Program-made: the position numbers and the translations under genes
Shown: one piece after another, positions 6,231 to 16,984 of the stretch
Layout of the letters: each line of letters starts with the position of its first letter
How positions within the stretch are numbered: the stretch's first letter is position 1
Notes under the pieces: model-generated
Told to the model about the DNA's origin: nothing
Databases searched by the model: none
Seen by the model: the letters and a program-made list of their open reading frames with translations, nothing else
Source: Nanobdellota archaeon
GTDB taxonomy: Archaea; Nanobdellota; Nanobdellia; Pacearchaeales; GW2011-AR1
Assembly: GCA_038045945.1 (NCBI GenBank)
Contig: JBBSXC010000004.1
Coordinates: 35,077-99,076 of the forward strand
Length of the DNA: 64,000 nucleotides
Direction of reading: 5' to 3'

Positions 6231-6745
6231 AGAACAAGCGAGGACAGGATGAAATAGTAGGATTCATAATAATAGTTCTGCTAGTAAGCGTGGTAGCATT
6301 AGTGTTCTTTGGGATAACCCTAAGAAAAACAGCGCCAATAGAAAGCTCAGTAAGACTAGAAAACTTTGCAGGGGCGGCACTCGGAGTAACAACAGATTGT
6401 AGCATAAAAAAAGTGCCAAGCTACTTAGACTTAGAAGACCTAATAAAAGAGTGCAGAAAAGGAACAAGTTGTTATGATGGGAAGAAAACGTGTGAATTAT
6501 TAAACAAAACAGTAGGAGAATTATTAGATTCAACATTCCCAATAAACGGCCAAGCACCAACAAACTATTACAGTTTTAAAGCATACTACCAACAAAACAC
6601 AAGCCAAGGAAGCAGCGGAGGAGTAGAATTCTACACTACAGAAAAAGGAAAATGTGAAGGAACAAAGAGCGGAAACACTCAAAGCATAAGCAGCCTGCCA
6701 GGGGTAATAAGAGTAGAAACACAAATATGCAGCAGTAGTGCCTAA
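6227..6745 (+). CDS. Pilin-like protein (class III signal peptide)
   Basis: MKNKRG|QDEIVGFIIIVLLVSVVALVFF. ATG at 6227 overlaps the upstream TGA (ATGA coupling). Confidence 0.5.
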   Translation: MKNKRGQDEIVGFIIIVLLVSVVALVFFGITLRKTAPIESSVRLENFAGAALGVTTDCSIKKVPSYLDLEDLIKECRKGTSCYDGKKTCELLNKTVGELLDSTFPINGQAPTNYYSFKAYYQQNTSQGSSGGVEFYTTEKGKCEGTKSGNTQSISSLPGVIRVETQICSSSA

Positions 6746-7101
6746 AAGTTAAGATTAATAGAAAGCTGAGAAACTTCAACTTCCGGCCTAACAGTCTTAC
6801 GGTTACCCTTACGCTCAGAAATAAGCTTAACAAAACCGAAACGTTCAAGGATTTTAAGATCCTTAGTAACAGCCTTAAAGTCACGACTTAACATTTTAGA
6901 AAGAGAATAAATAGATAAAGGTTTTTGGTTCTTAATAACATAAAGCATTTTAGCACGCTCATTACTAAGAAGCTTACGCAGGTCAGTAATACCAGAAAAG
7001 TCGTAATCCTCAGCCTTTTTACCACTAATTTTCTTAAATAAGAAACTAAAGGACGTGGGAGTAATGTATAAATCAATAATACGCTTCTTCTTCGACGCCA
7101 T
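6742..7101 (-). CDS. Winged-helix transcriptional regulator (small archaeal wHTH family)
   Basis: 119 aa with a helix-turn-helix-like segment LSIYSLSKMLSRDFKAVTKDLKILERFGFV. Convergent with the pilin-like operon. Confidence 0.45.
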   Translation of the reverse strand: MASKKKRIIDLYITPTSFSFLFKKISGKKAEDYDFSGITDLRKLLSNERAKMLYVIKNQKPLSIYSLSKMLSRDFKAVTKDLKILERFGFVKLISERKGNRKTVRPEVEVSQLSINLNF

Positions 7102-7462: not shown

Positions 7463-10051
7463 ATGGTTATGTTTAAAAAAATAGCATCGATTTTGGCGAG
7501 CGCAGTAATGCTTGGAAGCACTATGGGTGCAGCATTCGCAGCTAATTACCCAGCACCTTTCGTGTCGGGTGGAGCAGCAGATGTAGCAATCGTTTATGGT
7601 TCTAACGCAGCTGTTAGCGACTTATCGGCAGCTATAGATATACAAACAAACCTTCAAAGCAAAGTAACAAGTTCCTCAGGTTCATCAGCATCAAGTACAG
7701 GTGGAGATTCTGCAGATTTGGCTTCTTCAAGTCAGAAACTGTACGTAAACTCTACTTTAAGTGCGGCAAGAACAGTTCTTACAAAGGACTACTTACCAAC
7801 ACTACTAGCTGATGGTTCCGCTTACGACAATGCAGGAACAGAGTACAAATATACACAGGTAATTTACCCAGGTATAAACACTAGAAAAATTACTTTCGGA
7901 AAATCTTCTGAAAGTGTCGACCCTGCCCTAATCTTAGATTTGGGTTATTCGGGAACAAGCGCACCAACGTATAACTATACTTTGACATTCTCTAAGATTC
8001 TTAATGTATCAAGTTCTGACGTAGTTGGAACAGCCGACATTATGATTTTAGGAAACAAGTATACTATTGGTTCGAATTCCGATTCTAACACTCTGTACCT
8101 ATACGGAAGCGGTACAACAACCACTGTCGAGGAAGGCAATACTGCAACAGTAACAGTTGGCGCTAAAGACCACACAGTAATGTTGGTTGGAACTTCTGCA
8201 ACAAATACTGCTACTATCGAAGTTGATGGATCATCAAGATCCGTTACTAAGGGTAACAGCTACAAGTTCGCAGACGGTTTCGAAGTTTACGTCAAAGATT
8301 TATTCCACGCAACAAAGACTGGAACACTTTCCAGAGCTGAACTTTTAATAGGTTCAACTAGTCTACACTTCGAAGACGGACAATCCGTCAGAGTTGGTGC
8401 AGATGACACTTCGTTGTTAGGAACTAATGCTGAAATAACAGGAACTGCTGGTGCTGGAATCAGTGCAATAATGGTTTCACAATCAGCAGAATCAAGTATA
8501 GGAGACTACCTTAAAGCTGGTCAATCCTACACTGACAGAGTTTTCAAGAACTTAGTTCTTGATCACGTTGGTCCTGTTCCATCATTAGATGCTGAAAGCA
8601 GAGATATGCTAAGATTCGACACGGACAACTCCGTAGCTGCAAGAGCAACCTTTACAACAGATTTATCTGATAAAGAGTACACTCTAAACTACGCGAGGGA
8701 CTCAGACCAAACCGCAGATTCAGCTCTTGCTAGAGTTGACTTCTCTTACGACAACAACCTTAATATGACAAATATTGAGGGTGGTAATGCTAAGATGCAA
8801 GAATACCTTATCGTTAATGATAACGATTATGGTGTGATTCTTCGTGTTGACTCAATCCCAGCGGGAACGAGCACAAACGATCAATTAACGTTTTCGGATG
8901 CCATAACAGGAGAACAATATAAGTTCACTGTAGGTAACCTTAACACAACAACAGCAGTTGCAAACATCCGCGGCGGAGAATACTATGTTAACACAAACCC
9001 TTCAAACGCTGACAGCGCCTTATGGACTGTTAACGTAACTTGGGGTGCGGGTTCTGCTGCCGGTAATCCTGGTACGCAAACAACATTGTATCCTAGAATA
9101 AAGTTGCAAAACGGTGAGTGGATTTCATTCTTAACACAAGCAACAGTTAATAATGCTACCACTTATTCACTTCCAGGATTATATACACTATCTGATTACA
9201 AATCAGGTAGCATATTAACTGGTGGTAACGCTACAAACGCATACAACAGAAACTCAACGAGTTTCGGTAACGTAGCATTTAATGTAACATGGACTACTAA
9301 CAGCACGGCTAATCCTGCTGCAGGTACCCTAGATTCATTGAATCTTGGCGGAAGTAGTTGCATCTTTAACTCTACTATGGGTCCAGCTGTACTTTTACAG
9401 GAAGAGAAGACTGTTGATACAACAAACGGTCACGCTATCTGTATTCCATTGACAACGTCAAGCGGAAGTAACAGAATGCCTGCAATAGGCACTCCACTAT
9501 TCTCTGACACTTTAGGAAGCTTCGCAACACTGCAAAGCAATTCTTACAAGAGTCAGGCAATGGACAAGTTTGGTACATGGGTTGAGAGGGACACTACTAC
9601 AAACACCAACGGTGCTGTAGCTATAAGTTATCCAAGTGAACAGATGTATGTTGATGTATTCTTCCGTGGGAAGGAAACAACACTAACTCCAGGTTCCGAG
9701 GGCTCACAAGGCACTGGGAATGTTCTTATATTTAAGGACTCTGAGAGTGAATCGTTCATGAACAAGAACTTAGTAGTTATAGGTGGAAGCTGTGTTAATA
9801 CGGTAGCAAGGAAACTTGTTGACGCTAGCGCAAATTCACCAATCTGTGGTGCTGACTTTACAGCTAAGACAAACGTAGGTGCTGGTCAATACATGTTAAA
9901 GGCAATGGAATCTCCATATAATGTGGGTAAGGTTGCAATGCTTGTAGCAGGTTACGAAGCAGCAAATACTGCAACTGCAGCTGCAAAGTTGAAGGAAGGT
10001 CACGCAACGGACAAGGGAACGTCAAACGTTTACCCTGTTCAATCTGCTTAA
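7463..10051 (+). CDS. Putative S-layer / major cell-surface protein
   Basis: 862 aa. Signal peptide MVMFKKIASILASAVMLGSTMGAAFA. Ser/Thr/Gly/Asn-rich with no Cys-rich domains. Codon usage is less A-rich than neighbours, suggesting high expression. Long 5' leader and strong hairpin stack downstream. Confidence 0.55.
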   Translation: MVMFKKIASILASAVMLGSTMGAAFAANYPAPFVSGGAADVAIVYGSNAAVSDLSAAIDIQTNLQSKVTSSSGSSASSTGGDSADLASSSQKLYVNSTLSAARTVLTKDYLPTLLADGSAYDNAGTEYKYTQVIYPGINTRKITFGKSSESVDPALILDLGYSGTSAPTYNYTLTFSKILNVSSSDVVGTADIMILGNKYTIGSNSDSNTLYLYGSGTTTTVEEGNTATVTVGAKDHTVMLVGTSATNTATIEVDGSSRSVTKGNSYKFADGFEVYVKDLFHATKTGTLSRAELLIGSTSLHFEDGQSVRVGADDTSLLGTNAEITGTAGAGISAIMVSQSAESSIGDYLKAGQSYTDRVFKNLVLDHVGPVPSLDAESRDMLRFDTDNSVAARATFTTDLSDKEYTLNYARDSDQTADSALARVDFSYDNNLNMTNIEGGNAKMQEYLIVNDNDYGVILRVDSIPAGTSTNDQLTFSDAITGEQYKFTVGNLNTTTAVANIRGGEYYVNTNPSNADSALWTVNVTWGAGSAAGNPGTQTTLYPRIKLQNGEWISFLTQATVNNATTYSLPGLYTLSDYKSGSILTGGNATNAYNRNSTSFGNVAFNVTWTTNSTANPAAGTLDSLNLGGSSCIFNSTMGPAVLLQEEKTVDTTNGHAICIPLTTSSGSNRMPAIGTPLFSDTLGSFATLQSNSYKSQAMDKFGTWVERDTTTNTNGAVAISYPSEQMYVDVFFRGKETTLTPGSEGSQGTGNVLIFKDSESESFMNKNLVVIGGSCVNTVARKLVDASANSPICGADFTAKTNVGAGQYMLKAMESPYNVGKVAMLVAGYEAANTATAAAKLKEGHATDKGTSNVYPVQSA

Positions 10052-10287: not shown

Positions 10288-10920
10288 ATGAGAGAATTAA
10301 CAAGCAGAGAAGAAATAGAAAAGAAAGAAAAAAGAAACAAGACAACCCTGGGAATAATAATGGTCCTACTAATGCTTCTAAGCACAGCAGGATACGCATT
10401 ACTAAACTACCAATCAACAAGCACAGACACATCATCAGGAACACCAATAGCCAGTAATCCTAGCGGACAAATAGTTGAATACAACAAAATAAAGTTTGTA
10501 GGACAAGAAAGCGGACTGTGGCTATTTGAAGTACAAGGAAACACATTTTATTCATCGTACACACCGGAAGAAGTAAAACACATTAACGTACCATTCATAA
10601 ACATACAAGCATTCTCAGGACAAACAGTCTATTACTCAGGAAACATACTAGCAGCAAGAGAAATACTAACAAACATTAACCCATACATAATTAGATCGCA
10701 AGAAGCATGCTTACAAGAATCAAACATAAGCAACCAAAAATGCGAAGATAACCTGCCAATAAAAGACTGCACAAATACGTTCCTAGTAATAACAGAAGTA
10801 GGAGAAAATGAAACATCAAGAGTAACAACAGATAATAAGTGTATAATAATAAAGAGTAAAGATACAGAACTTTTAAAAACCGCTGACGCATTACTTTTCA
10901 GAATATTAGGAGTACAATGA
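10288..10920 (+). CDS. Membrane-anchored secreted protein (paralog of the next gene)
   Basis: One N-terminal TM (LGIIMVLLMLLSTAGYALL). Cys-containing C-terminal part shares a ...ETSRVTTDNKCII motif with 10925-11602. Confidence 0.4.
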   Translation: MRELTSREEIEKKEKRNKTTLGIIMVLLMLLSTAGYALLNYQSTSTDTSSGTPIASNPSGQIVEYNKIKFVGQESGLWLFEVQGNTFYSSYTPEEVKHINVPFINIQAFSGQTVYYSGNILAAREILTNINPYIIRSQEACLQESNISNQKCEDNLPIKDCTNTFLVITEVGENETSRVTTDNKCIIIKSKDTELLKTADALLFRILGVQ

Positions 10921-10924
10921 AAAC

Positions 10925-11602
10925 ATGACTAAAAAAAATATTAAGAAAGAAAAAGAAGAAGTGAACATTAATAGTGAAGCCTTCAGAAACAAACAATTAA
11001 GAAACATAACACTAATAATGGGAGTAGTAATACTAGTAACAATTATAGCATACTTAGTAACTAACAATTTATCAAACCCCAGCTATAGAGGTTTACAATT
11101 TACAAAAAATACTCAAGGTGGAGTAGACTTCTACATTGTTAAAGTGCCCGCAATTGATCCACTAACAGGAAAAACGCAAGGATACTACGACATGATCCTA
11201 AGAACAAACCCAAAAGAATTAGACAAAATAGAATATGATGGTAGAACAAAAATCTTAAGAAACGTGATAATGTCATTTGATAGAGCAATCGAAGGATGCG
11301 AAGACAACGTAATAGCAGTAGCAAACATGGCAAGATTCTTAACCGATGCAGGATTCCAGGTTAAAGGAGCATCACACGAGTACGAATACGCACAAGAAAC
11401 AAACATGACATACGCAACATGCGCGGACGCAGAAAACTCAACAGTCATAGTGTTACAAAAAGCTTTAAACGGAGAAACAACAAGCGTTAGAGAAACAGTG
11501 AATAATTGTTACATCGTTAATATTGCAGAGTGCCAAACACTACCAGCCCTTGAAAGAATGATGACTGAGATAGCTATTGAAGCATCAAAACAAGGACAAT
11601 AA
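10925..11602 (+). CDS. Membrane-anchored secreted protein (paralog of the previous gene)
   Basis: One N-terminal TM (ITLIMGVVILVTIIAYLV). C-terminal ...TTSVRETVNNCYIV resembles the upstream gene. Confidence 0.4.
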   Translation: MTKKNIKKEKEEVNINSEAFRNKQLRNITLIMGVVILVTIIAYLVTNNLSNPSYRGLQFTKNTQGGVDFYIVKVPAIDPLTGKTQGYYDMILRTNPKELDKIEYDGRTKILRNVIMSFDRAIEGCEDNVIAVANMARFLTDAGFQVKGASHEYEYAQETNMTYATCADAENSTVIVLQKALNGETTSVRETVNNCYIVNIAECQTLPALERMMTEIAIEASKQGQ

Positions 11603-11613
11603 AAAAAGATAAA

Positions 11614-12261
11614 ATGGTGTCAATAATTGATTTATTATTACACATTGATAAGTATATAGGAATATTCTTACAACAAAGCGGGCCACTAACATACTGGATA
11701 CTATTCCTAATAATATTTATAGAAACAGGAGTAGTATTCTTCCCATTCCTACCAGGAGACTCACTATTATTCGTCGCCGGAACATTCTCAAGCCAGGGAT
11801 TACTAAACCCAATAATATTATTCATAACTTTATCAACAGCAGCAATACTAGGAGATGGACTAAACTACTACTTAGGAAAATTCTTCGGAGAAAAAATAAT
11901 AAGAAAATTCCGATTCCTAAAAGAAGAATACTTAGAAAAAACTAAAGAATTCTACAAGCTGCACGGAGGAAAAACAATAATTTACGCAAGGTTCATACCT
12001 ATCGTGCGAACATTCGCACCGTTCGTAGCAGGAATTGGGGGAATGGAATACAAAAAATTCTTATCATACAACGTCATAGGAGCAGTATTATGGGTAGGAT
12101 TATTAGTATTCTCAGGATACTTCTTCGGAAACATAACACTAGTCAAAGAAAACTTACACATAATAATATACCTAATAATATTCGTTTCATTAATACCACC
12201 AATAATAGAGTGGTTAAGACACAAAATAAGAAAGAAAAAACAGCCTAAAAGCCATAAGTAA
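11614..12261 (+). CDS. dedA: DedA-family membrane protein
   Basis: Hallmark FIETGVVFFPFLPGDSLLFVAGTF and multiple TM helices. Confidence 0.75.
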   Translation: MVSIIDLLLHIDKYIGIFLQQSGPLTYWILFLIIFIETGVVFFPFLPGDSLLFVAGTFSSQGLLNPIILFITLSTAAILGDGLNYYLGKFFGEKIIRKFRFLKEEYLEKTKEFYKLHGGKTIIYARFIPIVRTFAPFVAGIGGMEYKKFLSYNVIGAVLWVGLLVFSGYFFGNITLVKENLHIIIYLIIFVSLIPPIIEWLRHKIRKKKQPKSHK

Positions 12262-12798
12262 TCATTTTTTGAGATATCTTAATAAAAACTTGAAGTCATC
12301 ATAAACAGGAATACCACTTATAACAAAAACTTTTGTTGTAGTAAACCAAACCCCTAAAACTATTATAATACTAAGAAAATACCAAGAAAACAAGTGTAAA
12401 GTATCAAAATAGTTACTACCTCCTTCGGAAACAGCAATAAGAGAAAAAATCGTTATTCTAATAACATTAATAATTAGGAATAAAGAAAGAGAAAAAACCA
12501 CGGCCTTGACCCTCTTATGAAGGATCATAGGCGTCGTTAAACAAAGAGCTAACAGTAAATAATAAGCTGCTCCAGCAACACAAGCATCTACTAATCCTAT
12601 TGTTAAACCATTAAAAACTATTAATTTTTCTAAGAAAAATCCTTGAGTAGAACCCACCAACCCCAACATAAACAAGGATAAGAAGTAAGTTATCGGGCTC
12701 ATAAAATAATAAATAATGAATAAGCCATTAATAGAAATAAGAAATAAAGAAAGATACCTACTTATTAAAGCAACAAAAAAACTATTAGAGTAATTCAT
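12262..12798 (-). CDS. Exosortase/archaeosortase-family membrane protein (short form)
   Basis: 178 aa polytopic membrane protein with VDAC-V-AG (Cys in a CxG context), an N-V-I-R-I motif and a downstream His (DTLHLF), in the order of the exosortase/archaeosortase Cys-Arg core. Sits in an operon with a surface protein carrying a C-terminal sorting-type tail. Confidence 0.45.
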   Translation of the reverse strand: MNYSNSFFVALISRYLSLFLISINGLFIIYYFMSPITYFLSLFMLGLVGSTQGFFLEKLIVFNGLTIGLVDACVAGAAYYLLLALCLTTPMILHKRVKAVVFSLSLFLIINVIRITIFSLIAVSEGGSNYFDTLHLFSWYFLSIIIVLGVWFTTTKVFVISGIPVYDDFKFLLRYLKK

Positions 12799-12832
12799 AA
12801 TACTAATATAAAGACTTGATTAATAAATAAAA

Positions 12833-13261
12833 CTATTTGTCATTAAGATTAGCCCAAATCCATCTTTGACGGAAAGATCTTGAATGGTCCTCTTGAGCAT
12901 CCCACAAAACACTCATCTCAATCTTACTAGAATCAACCTTTTCCCCTTCAGGCAAATTGTCATTATAACCAAGCTCTTTAGCAAGCCTACTCTCAGTTAA
13001 TTGTTCTTCTCTTGATTCACTTCGCTCATATTTATGAACATCGTGCCTTATGCCCCTACGAACATAATCAACAAGTCTTTCTTTAATAATAGGAGAATCA
13101 CCAACTAAAGAATTATAAGAAGTTCTCATTAGGTCAATAGGACCATGAGTAAAAGAACCTATTAATTCAGCTAAAAAAACTCCCGCAGTAACACCACCAA
13201 ATACAACACATGCTGTTAAACCAAGACAAGAAGAGCAACCGTCATTATTTTCATTAGCCAT
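12833..13261 (-). CDS. Hypothetical small membrane-anchored protein
   Basis: 142 aa. N-terminal CSSCLGLTACVVFGGVTAGVFLAELIG is hydrophobic, the remainder charged. Lies between the surface protein and the sortase-like gene. Confidence 0.35.
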   Translation of the reverse strand: MANENNDGCSSCLGLTACVVFGGVTAGVFLAELIGSFTHGPIDLMRTSYNSLVGDSPIIKERLVDYVRRGIRHDVHKYERSESREEQLTESRLAKELGYNDNLPEGEKVDSSKIEMSVLWDAQEDHSRSFRQRWIWANLNDK

Positions 13262-13278
13262 AGAATTAATAGAAATTT

Positions 13279-15213
13279 TTATTCTCTTCTTGAAAGTCTT
13301 ACAGCTGCAATTATTATTGCTGCTATTAAAATAATATTAGCTAATACTATAACCCAAATAACCCAGTTTTCCTTAATGCTGTCAATTATTGCTGAACCTG
13401 AAGGTGCAGATGAACCCTTAATGAATACAACTGCTTCTTGATCAGTAATAACACTACCTTTTGATGCTCTAATAGTGAATTTTTGTTCTCCAGAAGTGCC
13501 GCTCTTAGGAGTTAAAGTTATTGTAACGTCTCTGCTTTCTCCTTTAGCTAAAACTACTGATGAAGGCTCAACACCATCAAGAACAGCCCATGATTCGTAA
13601 CTGAAAGGAATTATTGAGAAAGTACCAGCATCAGAGTTAACATTTCTAATACTAGCTCTAATAACTAATTCTTTACCAGCAACAGCCTCAGACTCTAAAG
13701 TTGGGGAAATTGTTAATAAACCATCGGAAGATGATCCATCATCTACACAGTTACCTTCAACTCTGAAAGATCTTAAGACACGATCATTAACAGACTCATA
13801 GTTATCATTTCTTGAGTTGTATTCGTGTCTTGCTTCAATACCTAACTGGAATAATTTTTCATCAGCATCTTGGGGTATGTCAATATTGAATATTACTCTC
13901 TTGCTTTCACCAGCGTCAAGGTTACTTAATAATACTTCTTGGTCTATTCCTAATTCATCATTAGTTACACTTACAAGAACTCTCTTCTGATCTTTGTCGC
14001 CAATGTTGTGAACTTGTGCTTCAAGACTAGCGCTTGAACCACACATTAAAGGACTTTCAATCTCTAAATCAGTTATTCCAACTTCGTAATCATCACGATC
14101 ATTAATGCTTATACTTTCAAAAGCCCTAGAGTCCCAACGGTTATCGCATTGTTCGTCTTGGTCACCGTCAAAGTAAGCTTTAACGTATAATCTTGCATTG
14201 TCAGGAGTGTCAGCTGGAAGAGTGAAGTTGAAAAGGAATGTTTCCTCATCATCATCATTTATTGAGATTGTTTGTTCGTCTTCGAATAAGTTGTCGCCGT
14301 TTTCTGGGTCGTAAAGAGTGATAGCAACAGTTACGTCTTGTTCATCATTATCATTGTTTCTAGCTTCTATTTCAAGTTCTATTTCTTCAAGAAGATCCCA
14401 ATCGAAGTTACCATTGCTTGATGTTTCATCTTGAACTGAGACTATCTCAACATCGTTACCTATTTCACCAGACTCACAGAAGTCTTGGTTGAATGTTAAA
14501 ACAGTTGAAGTGCTGAATAATGTTGAAGCAGCTCTAATAGTAGTGCTTGCTGAACCAAGAAGTAAATCAATGTCTTCAGGATCTTGGGAGTAAGTAACAT
14601 TAATTATTTTAGTCTCTTGAGGGTTAAGATTGAAAGACTCAGTTGGAGTAAAGCTTAATGATAATTCTTCATCATCAGAATCTCTAACAGCGTTATTCTC
14701 AATGGAAACAACAATATTAGTTATAGGTTGATTACCATCATTCTTTATAGTTACAGAAGCATTATTACTGCTCTTGTTAAGAATAACAGGGCTTTTTAAG
14801 AATTTTAATGAAGCAAAAGAATTAACAGCAACTGATACAGGAATAGAAGCTATTGGAACACCACTACTGTAATTAACAAAAATTGTTCCAGATGTAGGAT
14901 TAGTTGAATACTTAGGAACAGTCAATTGTAAAGAGTAAGAATTAGTACCACTTGGTACAATAATATCACTAGTCTTGCTTAAAACAGGATTCCATGAGGA
15001 AAACCCAGAAGTTCTTATTATTACATTAGCATCAGCTACATCAGAACTTGCAAGAGTGAAATCAAAGGAAATTGTTCTAGTAGTACTATCATCACTAGGA
15101 TTAGTAGAGTTTGAAAAGCTTGTTTGCGAAGCAGTTATTGTAGCACTAACGGAAACTACAGCTAAAAGCAATATTAAACTTGCAAAAATTATACTAAATA
15201 ATCTCGATTTCAT
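13279..15213 (-). CDS. Cell-surface protein with N-terminal signal peptide and C-terminal TM plus basic sorting-signal-like tail
   Basis: 644 aa. MKSRLFSIIFASLILLLAVVSVSA signal. Ser/Thr/Asn-rich N-terminal part and an Asp/Glu-rich middle. C-terminus KENWVIWVIVLANIILIAAIIIAAVRLSRRE is a short motif, hydrophobic helix, then basic cluster, like exosortase/archaeosortase substrates. Confidence 0.6.
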   Translation of the reverse strand: MKSRLFSIIFASLILLLAVVSVSATITASQTSFSNSTNPSDDSTTRTISFDFTLASSDVADANVIIRTSGFSSWNPVLSKTSDIIVPSGTNSYSLQLTVPKYSTNPTSGTIFVNYSSGVPIASIPVSVAVNSFASLKFLKSPVILNKSSNNASVTIKNDGNQPITNIVVSIENNAVRDSDDEELSLSFTPTESFNLNPQETKIINVTYSQDPEDIDLLLGSASTTIRAASTLFSTSTVLTFNQDFCESGEIGNDVEIVSVQDETSSNGNFDWDLLEEIELEIEARNNDNDEQDVTVAITLYDPENGDNLFEDEQTISINDDDEETFLFNFTLPADTPDNARLYVKAYFDGDQDEQCDNRWDSRAFESISINDRDDYEVGITDLEIESPLMCGSSASLEAQVHNIGDKDQKRVLVSVTNDELGIDQEVLLSNLDAGESKRVIFNIDIPQDADEKLFQLGIEARHEYNSRNDNYESVNDRVLRSFRVEGNCVDDGSSSDGLLTISPTLESEAVAGKELVIRASIRNVNSDAGTFSIIPFSYESWAVLDGVEPSSVVLAKGESRDVTITLTPKSGTSGEQKFTIRASKGSVITDQEAVVFIKGSSAPSGSAIIDSIKENWVIWVIVLANIILIAAIIIAAVRLSRRE

Positions 15214-15377
15214 TTTGTGTTGTAATTGTGGAGTTATAACCTTTTATAAACTTTTCGGTAATTTGAAACAGAGCATTATAGGACTTATTAGTAAGAGGTA
15301 TTATTCTAGACTAATGGATTAGGACAATGTTTATAAACGGATTATACGTCTATAAATCATCTAAAAGGAGGTAAAAT

Positions 15378-15728
15378 ATGGCAGCAAAAAATAGCAGGTC
15401 GAACGCTATAGGCGCTTGGGCTTTCCTTATTGGTGTGGTTTTAGCAATCGTTTTAGGACTATTCCAATCAAGCCTTGGCAACGTTACTTGGATCCCAATA
15501 GTCTTAGTACTTATTGGTTTAGTGGTAGGATTGTTAAATGTTGGAGCAGCTGAAAATAGTAATTTCTTACTGGCTTCAGTTTCTCTAGTTATCGTATCCT
15601 TCATGGGTAGCGCAGTCTTAGCAGTTGTTCCTCAAGTTTCACTAATACTCTCTGCTCTAATGATTCTTTTCGTTCCAGCAGCAGTTATAGTAGCTTTAAG
15701 AACAATTTTCGTTATAGCTAGAGACTAA
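15378..15728 (+). CDS. Small polytopic membrane protein
   Basis: 116 aa, about four hydrophobic helices. Strong SD AGGAGGT 8 nt upstream. Divergent from the surface-protein operon. Confidence 0.5.
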   Translation: MAAKNSRSNAIGAWAFLIGVVLAIVLGLFQSSLGNVTWIPIVLVLIGLVVGLLNVGAAENSNFLLASVSLVIVSFMGSAVLAVVPQVSLILSALMILFVPAAVIVALRTIFVIARD

Positions 15729-16345: not shown

Positions 16346-16984
16346 TTACTCCAAATCCTTCATCTTTGTTATTCTGTCTAAGCTTATTATTCTTGAGTCA
16401 TCTTCTTCTATTCTTGGGCATGCAGTGTTTACCCAGAAGTCTATGGGGAAATTTTCGAATTCTCTTACATTAATGTTGTTTGTTAAGAACAAATACATGT
16501 TTTTGTCCGTGTTTTCTGGTAGTTTAACGAAGTCTATGGCCTTACCCAAGTCTTGCTGACCATACTTGTTCGATACTAATAACCCTAAGCTGTTAGCCGA
16601 ATAATACTTTGATAGTTTAGCTTTCCTTGTCTTTTCTGCTTCTAACATATAATTAGGATCTACCTTCGTTATTGAGTAACCATCAAATAATGTGATGTTT
16701 TTTGATATTCTGAAAAGGTTAGGGTTTGTTGCGTGAAACTTGCCTGAACCTACGTGTAAGATAGGCATTTCGCTTATTCCTAACTGGCGACAACCTATTA
16801 TTTGTAAAAATTTGCCTACCTTTACCCCCCCTTTCTCTAATTCTTCTTTTACGTGCTTTGCAAGGTTATAATACTGTATAGAATAGGTTATGTGTGTCTC
16901 TTTTGGTGACTGCTTGACTAAACTTTGCAGTTTTGCTTCATCAAAATCAAGTTTCTTAACAGCACGAACAAATATAGTCTTCAT
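16346..16984 (-). CDS. Dph2-like (diphthamide synthase family) protein; apparently only the second and third domains
   Basis: C-terminal FWVNTACPRIEEDD matches the conserved V-x-x-ACPR-x-x-x-DD Cys motif of Dph1/Dph2. IIGCRQLG...HVGSGKFH resembles the middle-domain Cys region. Only 212 aa against ~340 for archaeal Dph2. Confidence 0.45.
   Translation of the reverse strand: MKTIFVRAVKKLDFDEAKLQSLVKQSPKETHITYSIQYYNLAKHVKEELEKGGVKVGKFLQIIGCRQLGISEMPILHVGSGKFHATNPNLFRISKNITLFDGYSITKVDPNYMLEAEKTRKAKLSKYYSANSLGLLVSNKYGQQDLGKAIDFVKLPENTDKNMYLFLTNNINVREFENFPIDFWVNTACPRIEEDDSRIISLDRITKMKDLE

Follow-up and report, generated by a model that had tools for sequence, protein, structure and literature searches.

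The question raised by this locus is whether neighboring genes in a pacearchaeal genome form a sortase-like system dedicated to a single surface protein and, if so, whether that system is a new one. The window, the whole 64,000-nucleotide (nt) stretch analyzed here, is part of contig JBBSXC010000004.1 (GenBank assembly GCA_038045945.1, Nanobdellota archaeon, order Pacearchaeales), designated C4 in this 847-kb, seven-contig genome of 93% completeness, and the locus occupies its positions 12262 to 15213. Two of the genes very probably constitute a dedicated pacearchaeosortase system, in which an enzyme of 178 amino acid residues (aa) processes a 644-aa PACE-CTERM surface protein, and the system is an ordinary member of a family already known from database curation. 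An earlier reading made from the nucleotide letters alone (the first-pass annotation) had placed three minus-strand open reading frames (ORFs) here, and the ORF listing returns them at exactly those coordinates.

12262-12798, minus strand: pacearchaeosortase, 178 aa, polytopic (NF033505, TIGR04178, invariant residues, AlphaFold2 model)
12833-13261, minus strand: lineage-specific 142-aa ORF with one N-terminal helix, filling the slot held by a PAP2 gene in relatives
13279-15213, minus strand: PACE-CTERM substrate, 644 aa, with CARDB/Ig-like domains (NF033506, 464.2 bits)

The 178-aa protein was identified with the curated NCBIfam models. It matches NF033505 ("pacearchaeosortase"), whose cut-off is 80 bits, with 153.2 bits (E 6.7e-45), the match covering model positions 2-164 of 167, and a scan of the whole genome with this model returned it, at 152.6 bits, as the single sortase. 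It also scores above the cut-off of TIGR04178 ("exosortase/archaeosortase family protein"; 25.8 bits versus 23) over residues 71-152. Matches below the NCBIfam cut-offs were found to the heimdallarchaeosortase model, weakly, and to XrtX, XrtR, XrtM and XrtH (E 2.5e-4 to 0.024). Homologs are named "MAG: pacearchaeosortase [Nanoarchaeota archaeon]" in NCBI records and "exosortase/archaeosortase family protein" in those of the Joint Genome Institute (JGI). A profile built from 31 sortases and searched against 1.84 billion proteins yielded 565 representative clusters at E <=0.001; the best 150 of these 565 matches are all pacearchaeosortase-like, almost all of them 100-260 aa in length, with no bridge to ArtA among them.

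The alignment of the enzyme with 30 homologs (31 sequences, the homologs sharing 32-41% identity with it) contains 18 invariant positions: R14, Y15, T37, C73, A75, G76, A78, R96, N111, R114, I115, H135, W139, Y140, W151, F152, P164 and D168. Cys, Arg and His are the suspected exosortase and archaeosortase triad (Haft, bioRxiv 10.1101/2023.06.07.544157), and residues of the same three types are found here, all inside the TIGR04178 match, at the following codons:

12580-12582, minus strand: Cys73
12457-12459, minus strand: Arg114
12394-12396, minus strand: His135

The N-x-x-R-I motif and downstream histidine pointed out in the first-pass annotation are thus present as N111-V-I-R114-I115 and His135, while its C-x-G context for the cysteine has to be corrected to C-x-x-G (A-C73-V-A-G76). 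The AlphaFold2 model is confident (predicted local distance difference test 88.8, predicted template modeling score 0.80) and consists of bundled helices plus a short sheet of three strands (residues 51-68) directly before Cys73. Because the loop H93-K94-R96-K98 is basic, the positive-inside rule suggests that Cys73, Arg114 and His135 all lie toward the outer leaflet, which would position the active site near that face of the membrane.

The 644-aa protein is assigned to the partner family. NF033506 ("PACE-CTERM-PROT, putative S-layer protein") is matched far above its cut-off of 110 bits and over model positions 4-627 of 627, and Pfam CARDB is matched with E 1.7e-11. The protein is acidic (isoelectric point 4.16) and has two hydrophobic segments, residues 5-23 at the N-terminus and residues 618-636 at the C-terminus, the latter followed by RLSRRE, so that both the N-terminal signal and the C-terminal helix with its basic tail had been read correctly from the sequence. 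A putative signal peptide is deduced from the basic residues at the N-terminus, the hydrophobic core and the V-S-A that follows it. N-glycosylation sequons are not enriched in this protein (6 observed, 9 expected).

15139-15213, minus strand: putative Sec-type signal peptide, covering approximately residues 1-25 of the substrate
13282-13374, minus strand: PACE-CTERM sorting signal, residues 614-644, comprising K-E-N-W-x-x-W, a helix with Asn626, and A-V-R-L-S-R-R-E

The tail reads K614-E-N-W-V-I-W-V-I-V-L-A-N626 ... A-V-R639-L-S-R-R-E644 and fits the consensus of 26 homologous substrate tails, drawn from its own family in 26 other genomes with this genome left out: G-[IL]-T-G ... [DE]-N-W-Y-L-W-G-I-G-x-L-N-[IV]-[IL]-L ... 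I-I-[IV]-V-A-[VI]-[RK]-V-A-R-K. With all filters off, a hidden Markov model (HMM) of these 26 tails was run against the genome's 2358 ORFs of at least 60 aa. It matched the 644-aa protein alone, with 30.3 bits and E 2.9e-8; the runner-up reached 7.9 bits and did not lie at a C-terminus. The first-pass annotation had counted the lack of any other protein with this tail among the findings that would speak against its proposal; literally, no other protein in the genome shares it, and this points to a one-to-one system rather than to a refutation. Since the tail HMM matches only the 644-aa protein, the enzyme appears to be dedicated to one substrate, and the genome holds one full-length substrate and one sortase. 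In dedicated sorting systems the relationship is one-to-one, with the genes for enzyme and target consecutive or nearby (Haft, bioRxiv 10.1101/2023.06.07.544157). Here the substrate stop codon is followed by the sortase start 480 nt farther on the same strand.

A regular-expression scan for a hydrophobic run with a basic end was rejected, since its output was largely spurious ORFs of low complexity and it missed the true substrate, whose helix contains an Asn. On contig C1, a 412-aa protein (L003:1222-2460) paralogous to the substrate ectodomain scores 73.9 bits with NF033506, below the cut-off; its C-terminal helix is followed by a long acidic end, ...KKPAKESEEFGESYY, and it has no tail-HMM match. 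It was ruled out as a substrate for want of a PACE tail and looks like a permanently anchored relative.

The polar residue inside the helix, Asn or Asp, is kept in the substrates of the genome's own family and of two others that were compared, and its position fits recognition by a deeply membrane-embedded enzyme (bioRxiv 10.1101/2023.06.07.544157). The signature around it differs from family to family: in another family of the Pacearchaeales it reads "...L-S-N-L-S-G-F-D-L-x-T-V-N-I..." and in a third "...N-P-x-W...D-A...". That the signature shifts between families while all of the enzymes pass NF033505 suggests that enzyme and signal co-evolve in pairs.

The pairing extends across the order. 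Of 151 genomes of the Pacearchaeales, 140 contain a sortase and 146 a substrate-family protein scoring above the respective cut-off; none of 14 control genomes exceeds either cut-off. By hand count, about 105 of the 151 have the substrate gene upstream of the sortase gene, in the same orientation and no more than 2.6 kb away; roughly half of these pairs are directly adjacent (50-150 bp), and many others are separated by a gap of 650-800 bp. The two genes are divergent in two genomes of one family. Single departures were also seen on the enzyme side. Relative G035 (95% complete, 4 contigs) has a substrate gene facing an S-layer-like gene with about 2 kb between them (C1:378198-384451) and no sortase match anywhere in the genome, where the enzyme could have been lost or be highly divergent. 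In relative G051 the sortase match is split by an in-frame TAA (C15:8129-8607) next to an intact substrate gene; the split could reflect a pseudogene or an error in the assembly.

Against the closest described system, the pair defined by NF033505 and NF033506, nothing essential differs: the enzyme has the same compact size (about 170-200 aa), invariant Cys, Arg and His, adjacent genes and a one-to-one relationship, and the local variants are confined to the 142-aa ORF in the usual PAP2 slot and to an inverted, convergent DedA gene. Likeness to ArtA and its PGF-CTERM substrates in Haloferax volcanii is more distant. Both enzymes are polytopic cysteine enzymes of the TIGR04178 superfamily acting on a motif-helix-basic signal, and the ArtA substrate is a major surface protein, as the substrate here is a surface protein. 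ArtA, however, has about 300 aa and several substrates, compared with 178 aa and one substrate here, and its signature is PGF, compared with [DE]-N-W..W..L-N; the tail examined here has no PGF, and no ArtA model in NCBIfam matches the enzyme at E values up to 1. In PMC9263693, which cites Abdul Halim 2018, Cys173, Arg214 and Arg253 of ArtA are given as critical by mutagenesis. The Cys-to-Arg spacing of 41 residues is the same in both proteins (Cys173-Arg214 and Cys73-Arg114; PMC9263693), from which we infer, by spacing rather than by direct alignment, that these residues correspond. The dedicated exosortases XrtX, XrtR, XrtM and XrtH are compact as well, with weak similarity over the catalytic core, and the scores obtained with their models are far below the respective cut-offs. 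These four models carry bacterial exosortase names.

The mechanism that these observations suggest is as follows. The 644-aa acidic protein would be exported via Sec and retained in the membrane by its C-terminal PACE-CTERM helix. The enzyme, a minimal cysteine peptidase of the exosortase/archaeosortase type, would recognize the signal within the membrane, reading the [DE]-N-W..W motif at the helix's outer end, the polar Asn within the helix and the basic stop-transfer end. Cys73 is predicted to attack near [DE]-N-W with assistance from Arg114 and His135, so that the helix is cut off, and, by analogy with ArtA, a membrane lipid would then receive the new C-terminus, or else the envelope would receive the freed protein. 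The acceptor proposed for ArtA is archaetidylethanolamine, made by PssA and PssD (PMC7157517). The genome encodes AglB/STT3, which implies that a polyprenyl-phosphate cycle is present. Three outcomes of cleavage are possible: the protein may become attached to a host-derived lipid, its attachment may be linked to a polyprenyl carrier, or it may simply be released.

Several observations tell against this interpretation or against parts of it. No PssA-type CDP-alcohol phosphatidyltransferase and no phosphatidylserine decarboxylase was found in the 93%-complete genome; because both are missing, the lipid-acceptor route proposed for ArtA, whose substrate lipidation needs PssA and PssD, appears not to be encoded. 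The third essential residue of ArtA is Arg253, compared with the invariant His135 here. Of the models against which the first-pass annotation had suggested checking the enzyme, TIGR04178 is passed by a narrow margin, and the Pfam scan, Exosortase_EpsH/PF09721 included, gave no match, PF09721 being recorded on the more distant homologs P0170-P0172. Neither Foldseek (best E 1.9) nor a sequence-profile search matched a solved structure in the PDB. The two genes are unlinked in one family, where single contigs of G044 and G046 carry them some 90-110 kb from each other, and a synteny control showed genes outside the surrounding block to be syntenic across families too. The sequencing runs that contain the locus are groundwater metagenome DNA only, with no RNA run, and in the literature searched there is no mention of the pacearchaeosortase family and no experimental work on it.

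These points have to be set against the alternatives they would favor. If the C-terminal helix were a plain permanent anchor and the small polytopic protein unrelated to it, their adjacency would be inherited gene order, as the conserved order of unrelated housekeeping genes around the block and the unlinked family would allow; a plain anchor, however, has no need of a family-specific tail signature with a polar residue in the helix, the enzyme passes the exosortase/archaeosortase signature with its triad kept, and almost every genome searched contains both families, the unlinked cases included. We regard this explanation as very unlikely. A more serious competitor, though still an unlikely one, is a protease of release or maturation only, which would clip the helix and free the protein, for example to bind an S-layer-like lattice, with no transfer to lipid. 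The missing PssA/PssD acceptor pathway and the minimal genomes of the DPANN archaea are in keeping with it, and one-step transpeptidation by archaeosortases is unsettled even for ArtA (bioRxiv 10.1101/2023.06.07.544157). The Cys/Arg/His triad, on the other hand, is of the transpeptidase type (bioRxiv 10.1101/2023.06.07.544157), genes related to lipid carriers (PAP2, DedA superfamily) recur as neighbors, and host-derived lipids could act as acceptor.

The remaining alternative concerns novelty rather than function. The core proposal of the first-pass annotation, an exosortase/archaeosortase-family enzyme beside its cognate substrate with a tripartite tail that has no PGF, PEP or VPXXXP, is borne out by the curated models; its further suggestion, that the archaeosortase subtype may be undescribed and the sorting signal new, is not, since NF033505 and NF033506 already define the pair and NCBI names a homolog pacearchaeosortase. 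The tail without any of the three known motifs, the enzyme without a Pfam match and a family unmentioned in the literature searched would fit such a subtype, but dedicated models exist for both partners and are passed by large margins, and we consider a new subtype scarcely credible. The identification itself adds little, since both genes would receive their names from a PGAP-style annotation. What gives the dedicated pacearchaeosortase system its interest is the conserved envelope block around it and the missing lipid-acceptor pathway. At 178 aa and with one substrate, the enzyme is among the smallest of the archaeosortase type and, as the PDB copy searched contains no solved structure for this fold, could serve as a minimal model for how exosortase/archaeosortase enzymes recognize and cut a transmembrane sorting signal. 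The system occurs almost throughout an order whose members, host-dependent DPANN archaea, are seemingly unable to make the ArtA-type lipid acceptor, which raises the question of what, if anything, the surface protein is attached to.

The three genes had been read as one operon. Co-transcription is favored because the intergenic gaps are only 17 nt (between the 644-aa and 142-aa genes) and 34 nt (between the 142-aa gene and the sortase gene), and a three-gene operon is plausible by this spacing; the 34-nt gap 5' of the sortase gene is, however, T-rich with a TATA-like A/T-rich stretch, which counts against a single transcription unit. A second such element precedes the substrate gene:

15243-15250, minus strand: TATA-like box TTTATAAA, read from the sequence, some 33 nt 5' of the substrate ATG

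A purine-rich gaaaag stands just before this box, and the two together resemble a B recognition element (BRE)/TATA pair that may be the promoter, although in a genome of about 34% GC a chance match is possible. At the 3' end of the sortase gene, no nucleotide separates its stop codon (TGA, 12262-12264, minus strand) from that of the DedA gene (TAA, 12259-12261, plus strand), and transcripts converging here must overlap or terminate within the opposite coding region.

The 142-aa gene, included in the system by the first-pass annotation, does not belong to it as far as its distribution indicates. Its product has no Pfam or NCBIfam family match and no match in 30 homologous loci. Only 2 of 100 other family genomes were found to have the gene, and in relative G083, one of the two, the homolog is off the sortase contig and has an in-frame TGA; because of this rarity the gene is best read as a local insertion. 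A 112-aa ORF beside the C1 paralog was considered as a relative of the 142-aa protein and dismissed as unconvincing (BLASTP E 0.025 over 28 residues).

In relatives, the recurrent gene between substrate and sortase encodes a PAP2 phosphatase of about 200 aa. All six of the gap proteins scanned match PF01569 (E 1e-18 to 7e-24), and of the 26 loci with the substrate in view, 15 have the gene on the opposite strand. The genome studied here has a PAP2 homolog elsewhere (C3:103456-104142, E 4e-13). The C2 motif of PAP2 enzymes is PSGH, with the His at the position where most gap PAP2 proteins (L009, L010, L012 and 12 other loci) read P-S-F-Q; few keep P-S-[GS]-H. The chemistry of the gap PAP2 phosphatases may accordingly be altered.

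On its other side, the sortase gene adjoins a group of envelope-related genes on the plus strand:

11614-12261, plus strand: DedA-family membrane protein (PF09335 VTT, E 4e-23; NF008102, 237.5 bits)
10925-11602, plus strand: p225, DPANN-specific single-pass membrane protein (homolog in 30 of 30 loci)
10288-10920, plus strand: p210, single-pass membrane protein specific to DPANN (25 of 30 loci with a homolog, many truncated by the end of the locus)
7463-10051, plus strand: S-layer-like protein, 862 aa, with signal peptide (PF05124, E 1.7e-13)

The DedA gene converges on the sortase gene here, and in 9 of the 30 homologous loci it is co-directional, 3' of the sortase gene and overlapping it. A PF06695 gene abuts the sortase convergently in a further 12, so that a gene of the DedA superfamily adjoins the sortase in 21 of the 30; in the available portions of papers on the DedA superfamily, PF06695 is treated together with DedA. 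p225 has no Pfam or NCBIfam family, its Atlas matches being unnamed archaeal clusters only, and p210 and p225 are both found only in unnamed DPANN clusters. The two are encoded by adjacent genes, have 210 and 225 aa with four Cys each, and match the same Atlas structural cluster (212 aa, 183 members), and are thus probably structural paralogs of each other.

The S-layer-like gene ends 2.2 kb from the sortase gene and 3.2 kb from the substrate gene, and the remark that a putative S-layer gene about 2 kb away has no C-terminal helix agrees with the PF05124 assignment and with its product. By hand count, a convergent PF05124 gene is located within about 7 kb of the sortase gene in approximately 85 of the 151 genomes. 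Direct mapping of ten genomes (L037-L046) from three families gave the same order in all ten, with p225, PAP2 or the DedA-type gene missing from a few of them: the S-layer-like, p210 and p225 genes in forward orientation, the PF06695 or DedA gene, the sortase gene in reverse, the PAP2 gene forward and the substrate gene in reverse. In all ten, the S-layer-like protein has no C-terminal helix (maximum KD19 <=0.67) and the substrate always has one (at least 2.68). NF033506 is named "putative S-layer protein", yet a separate, anchorless PF05124 protein is conserved in the same block. In the two-protein S-layer of the Sulfolobales, SlaA is combined with a separate membrane stalk, SlaB. The arrangement here, an anchorless 862-aa PF05124 protein near a second surface protein whose only anchor is C-terminal, resembles this in gene layout, with no sequence relationship or protein interaction implied.

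From these neighbors one could propose that the enzyme-substrate pair is one arm of an envelope-building block, that the processed protein is the anchored partner of the PF05124 lattice protein, and that the acceptor chemistry is tied to recycling of a polyprenyl-(pyro)phosphate carrier by PAP2 and DedA-superfamily flippases rather than to PssA/PssD. We hold this extension to be improbable. Local gene order is conservative in the order generally, and static synteny of the block is thus weak evidence for function; a better argument for it is that different DedA-superfamily genes seem to fill the same slot in different orientations. Were it true, the logic of the system would be closer to that of sortase A and lipid II.

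Three further genes near the block keep their place in part of the ten mapped loci. A 119-aa gene (6742-7101, minus strand) upstream of the S-layer-like gene is kept in nine, the position of a short Dph2-like gene (16346-16984, minus strand) beyond the substrate in five, and a gene for a 116-aa membrane protein (15378-15728) in four.

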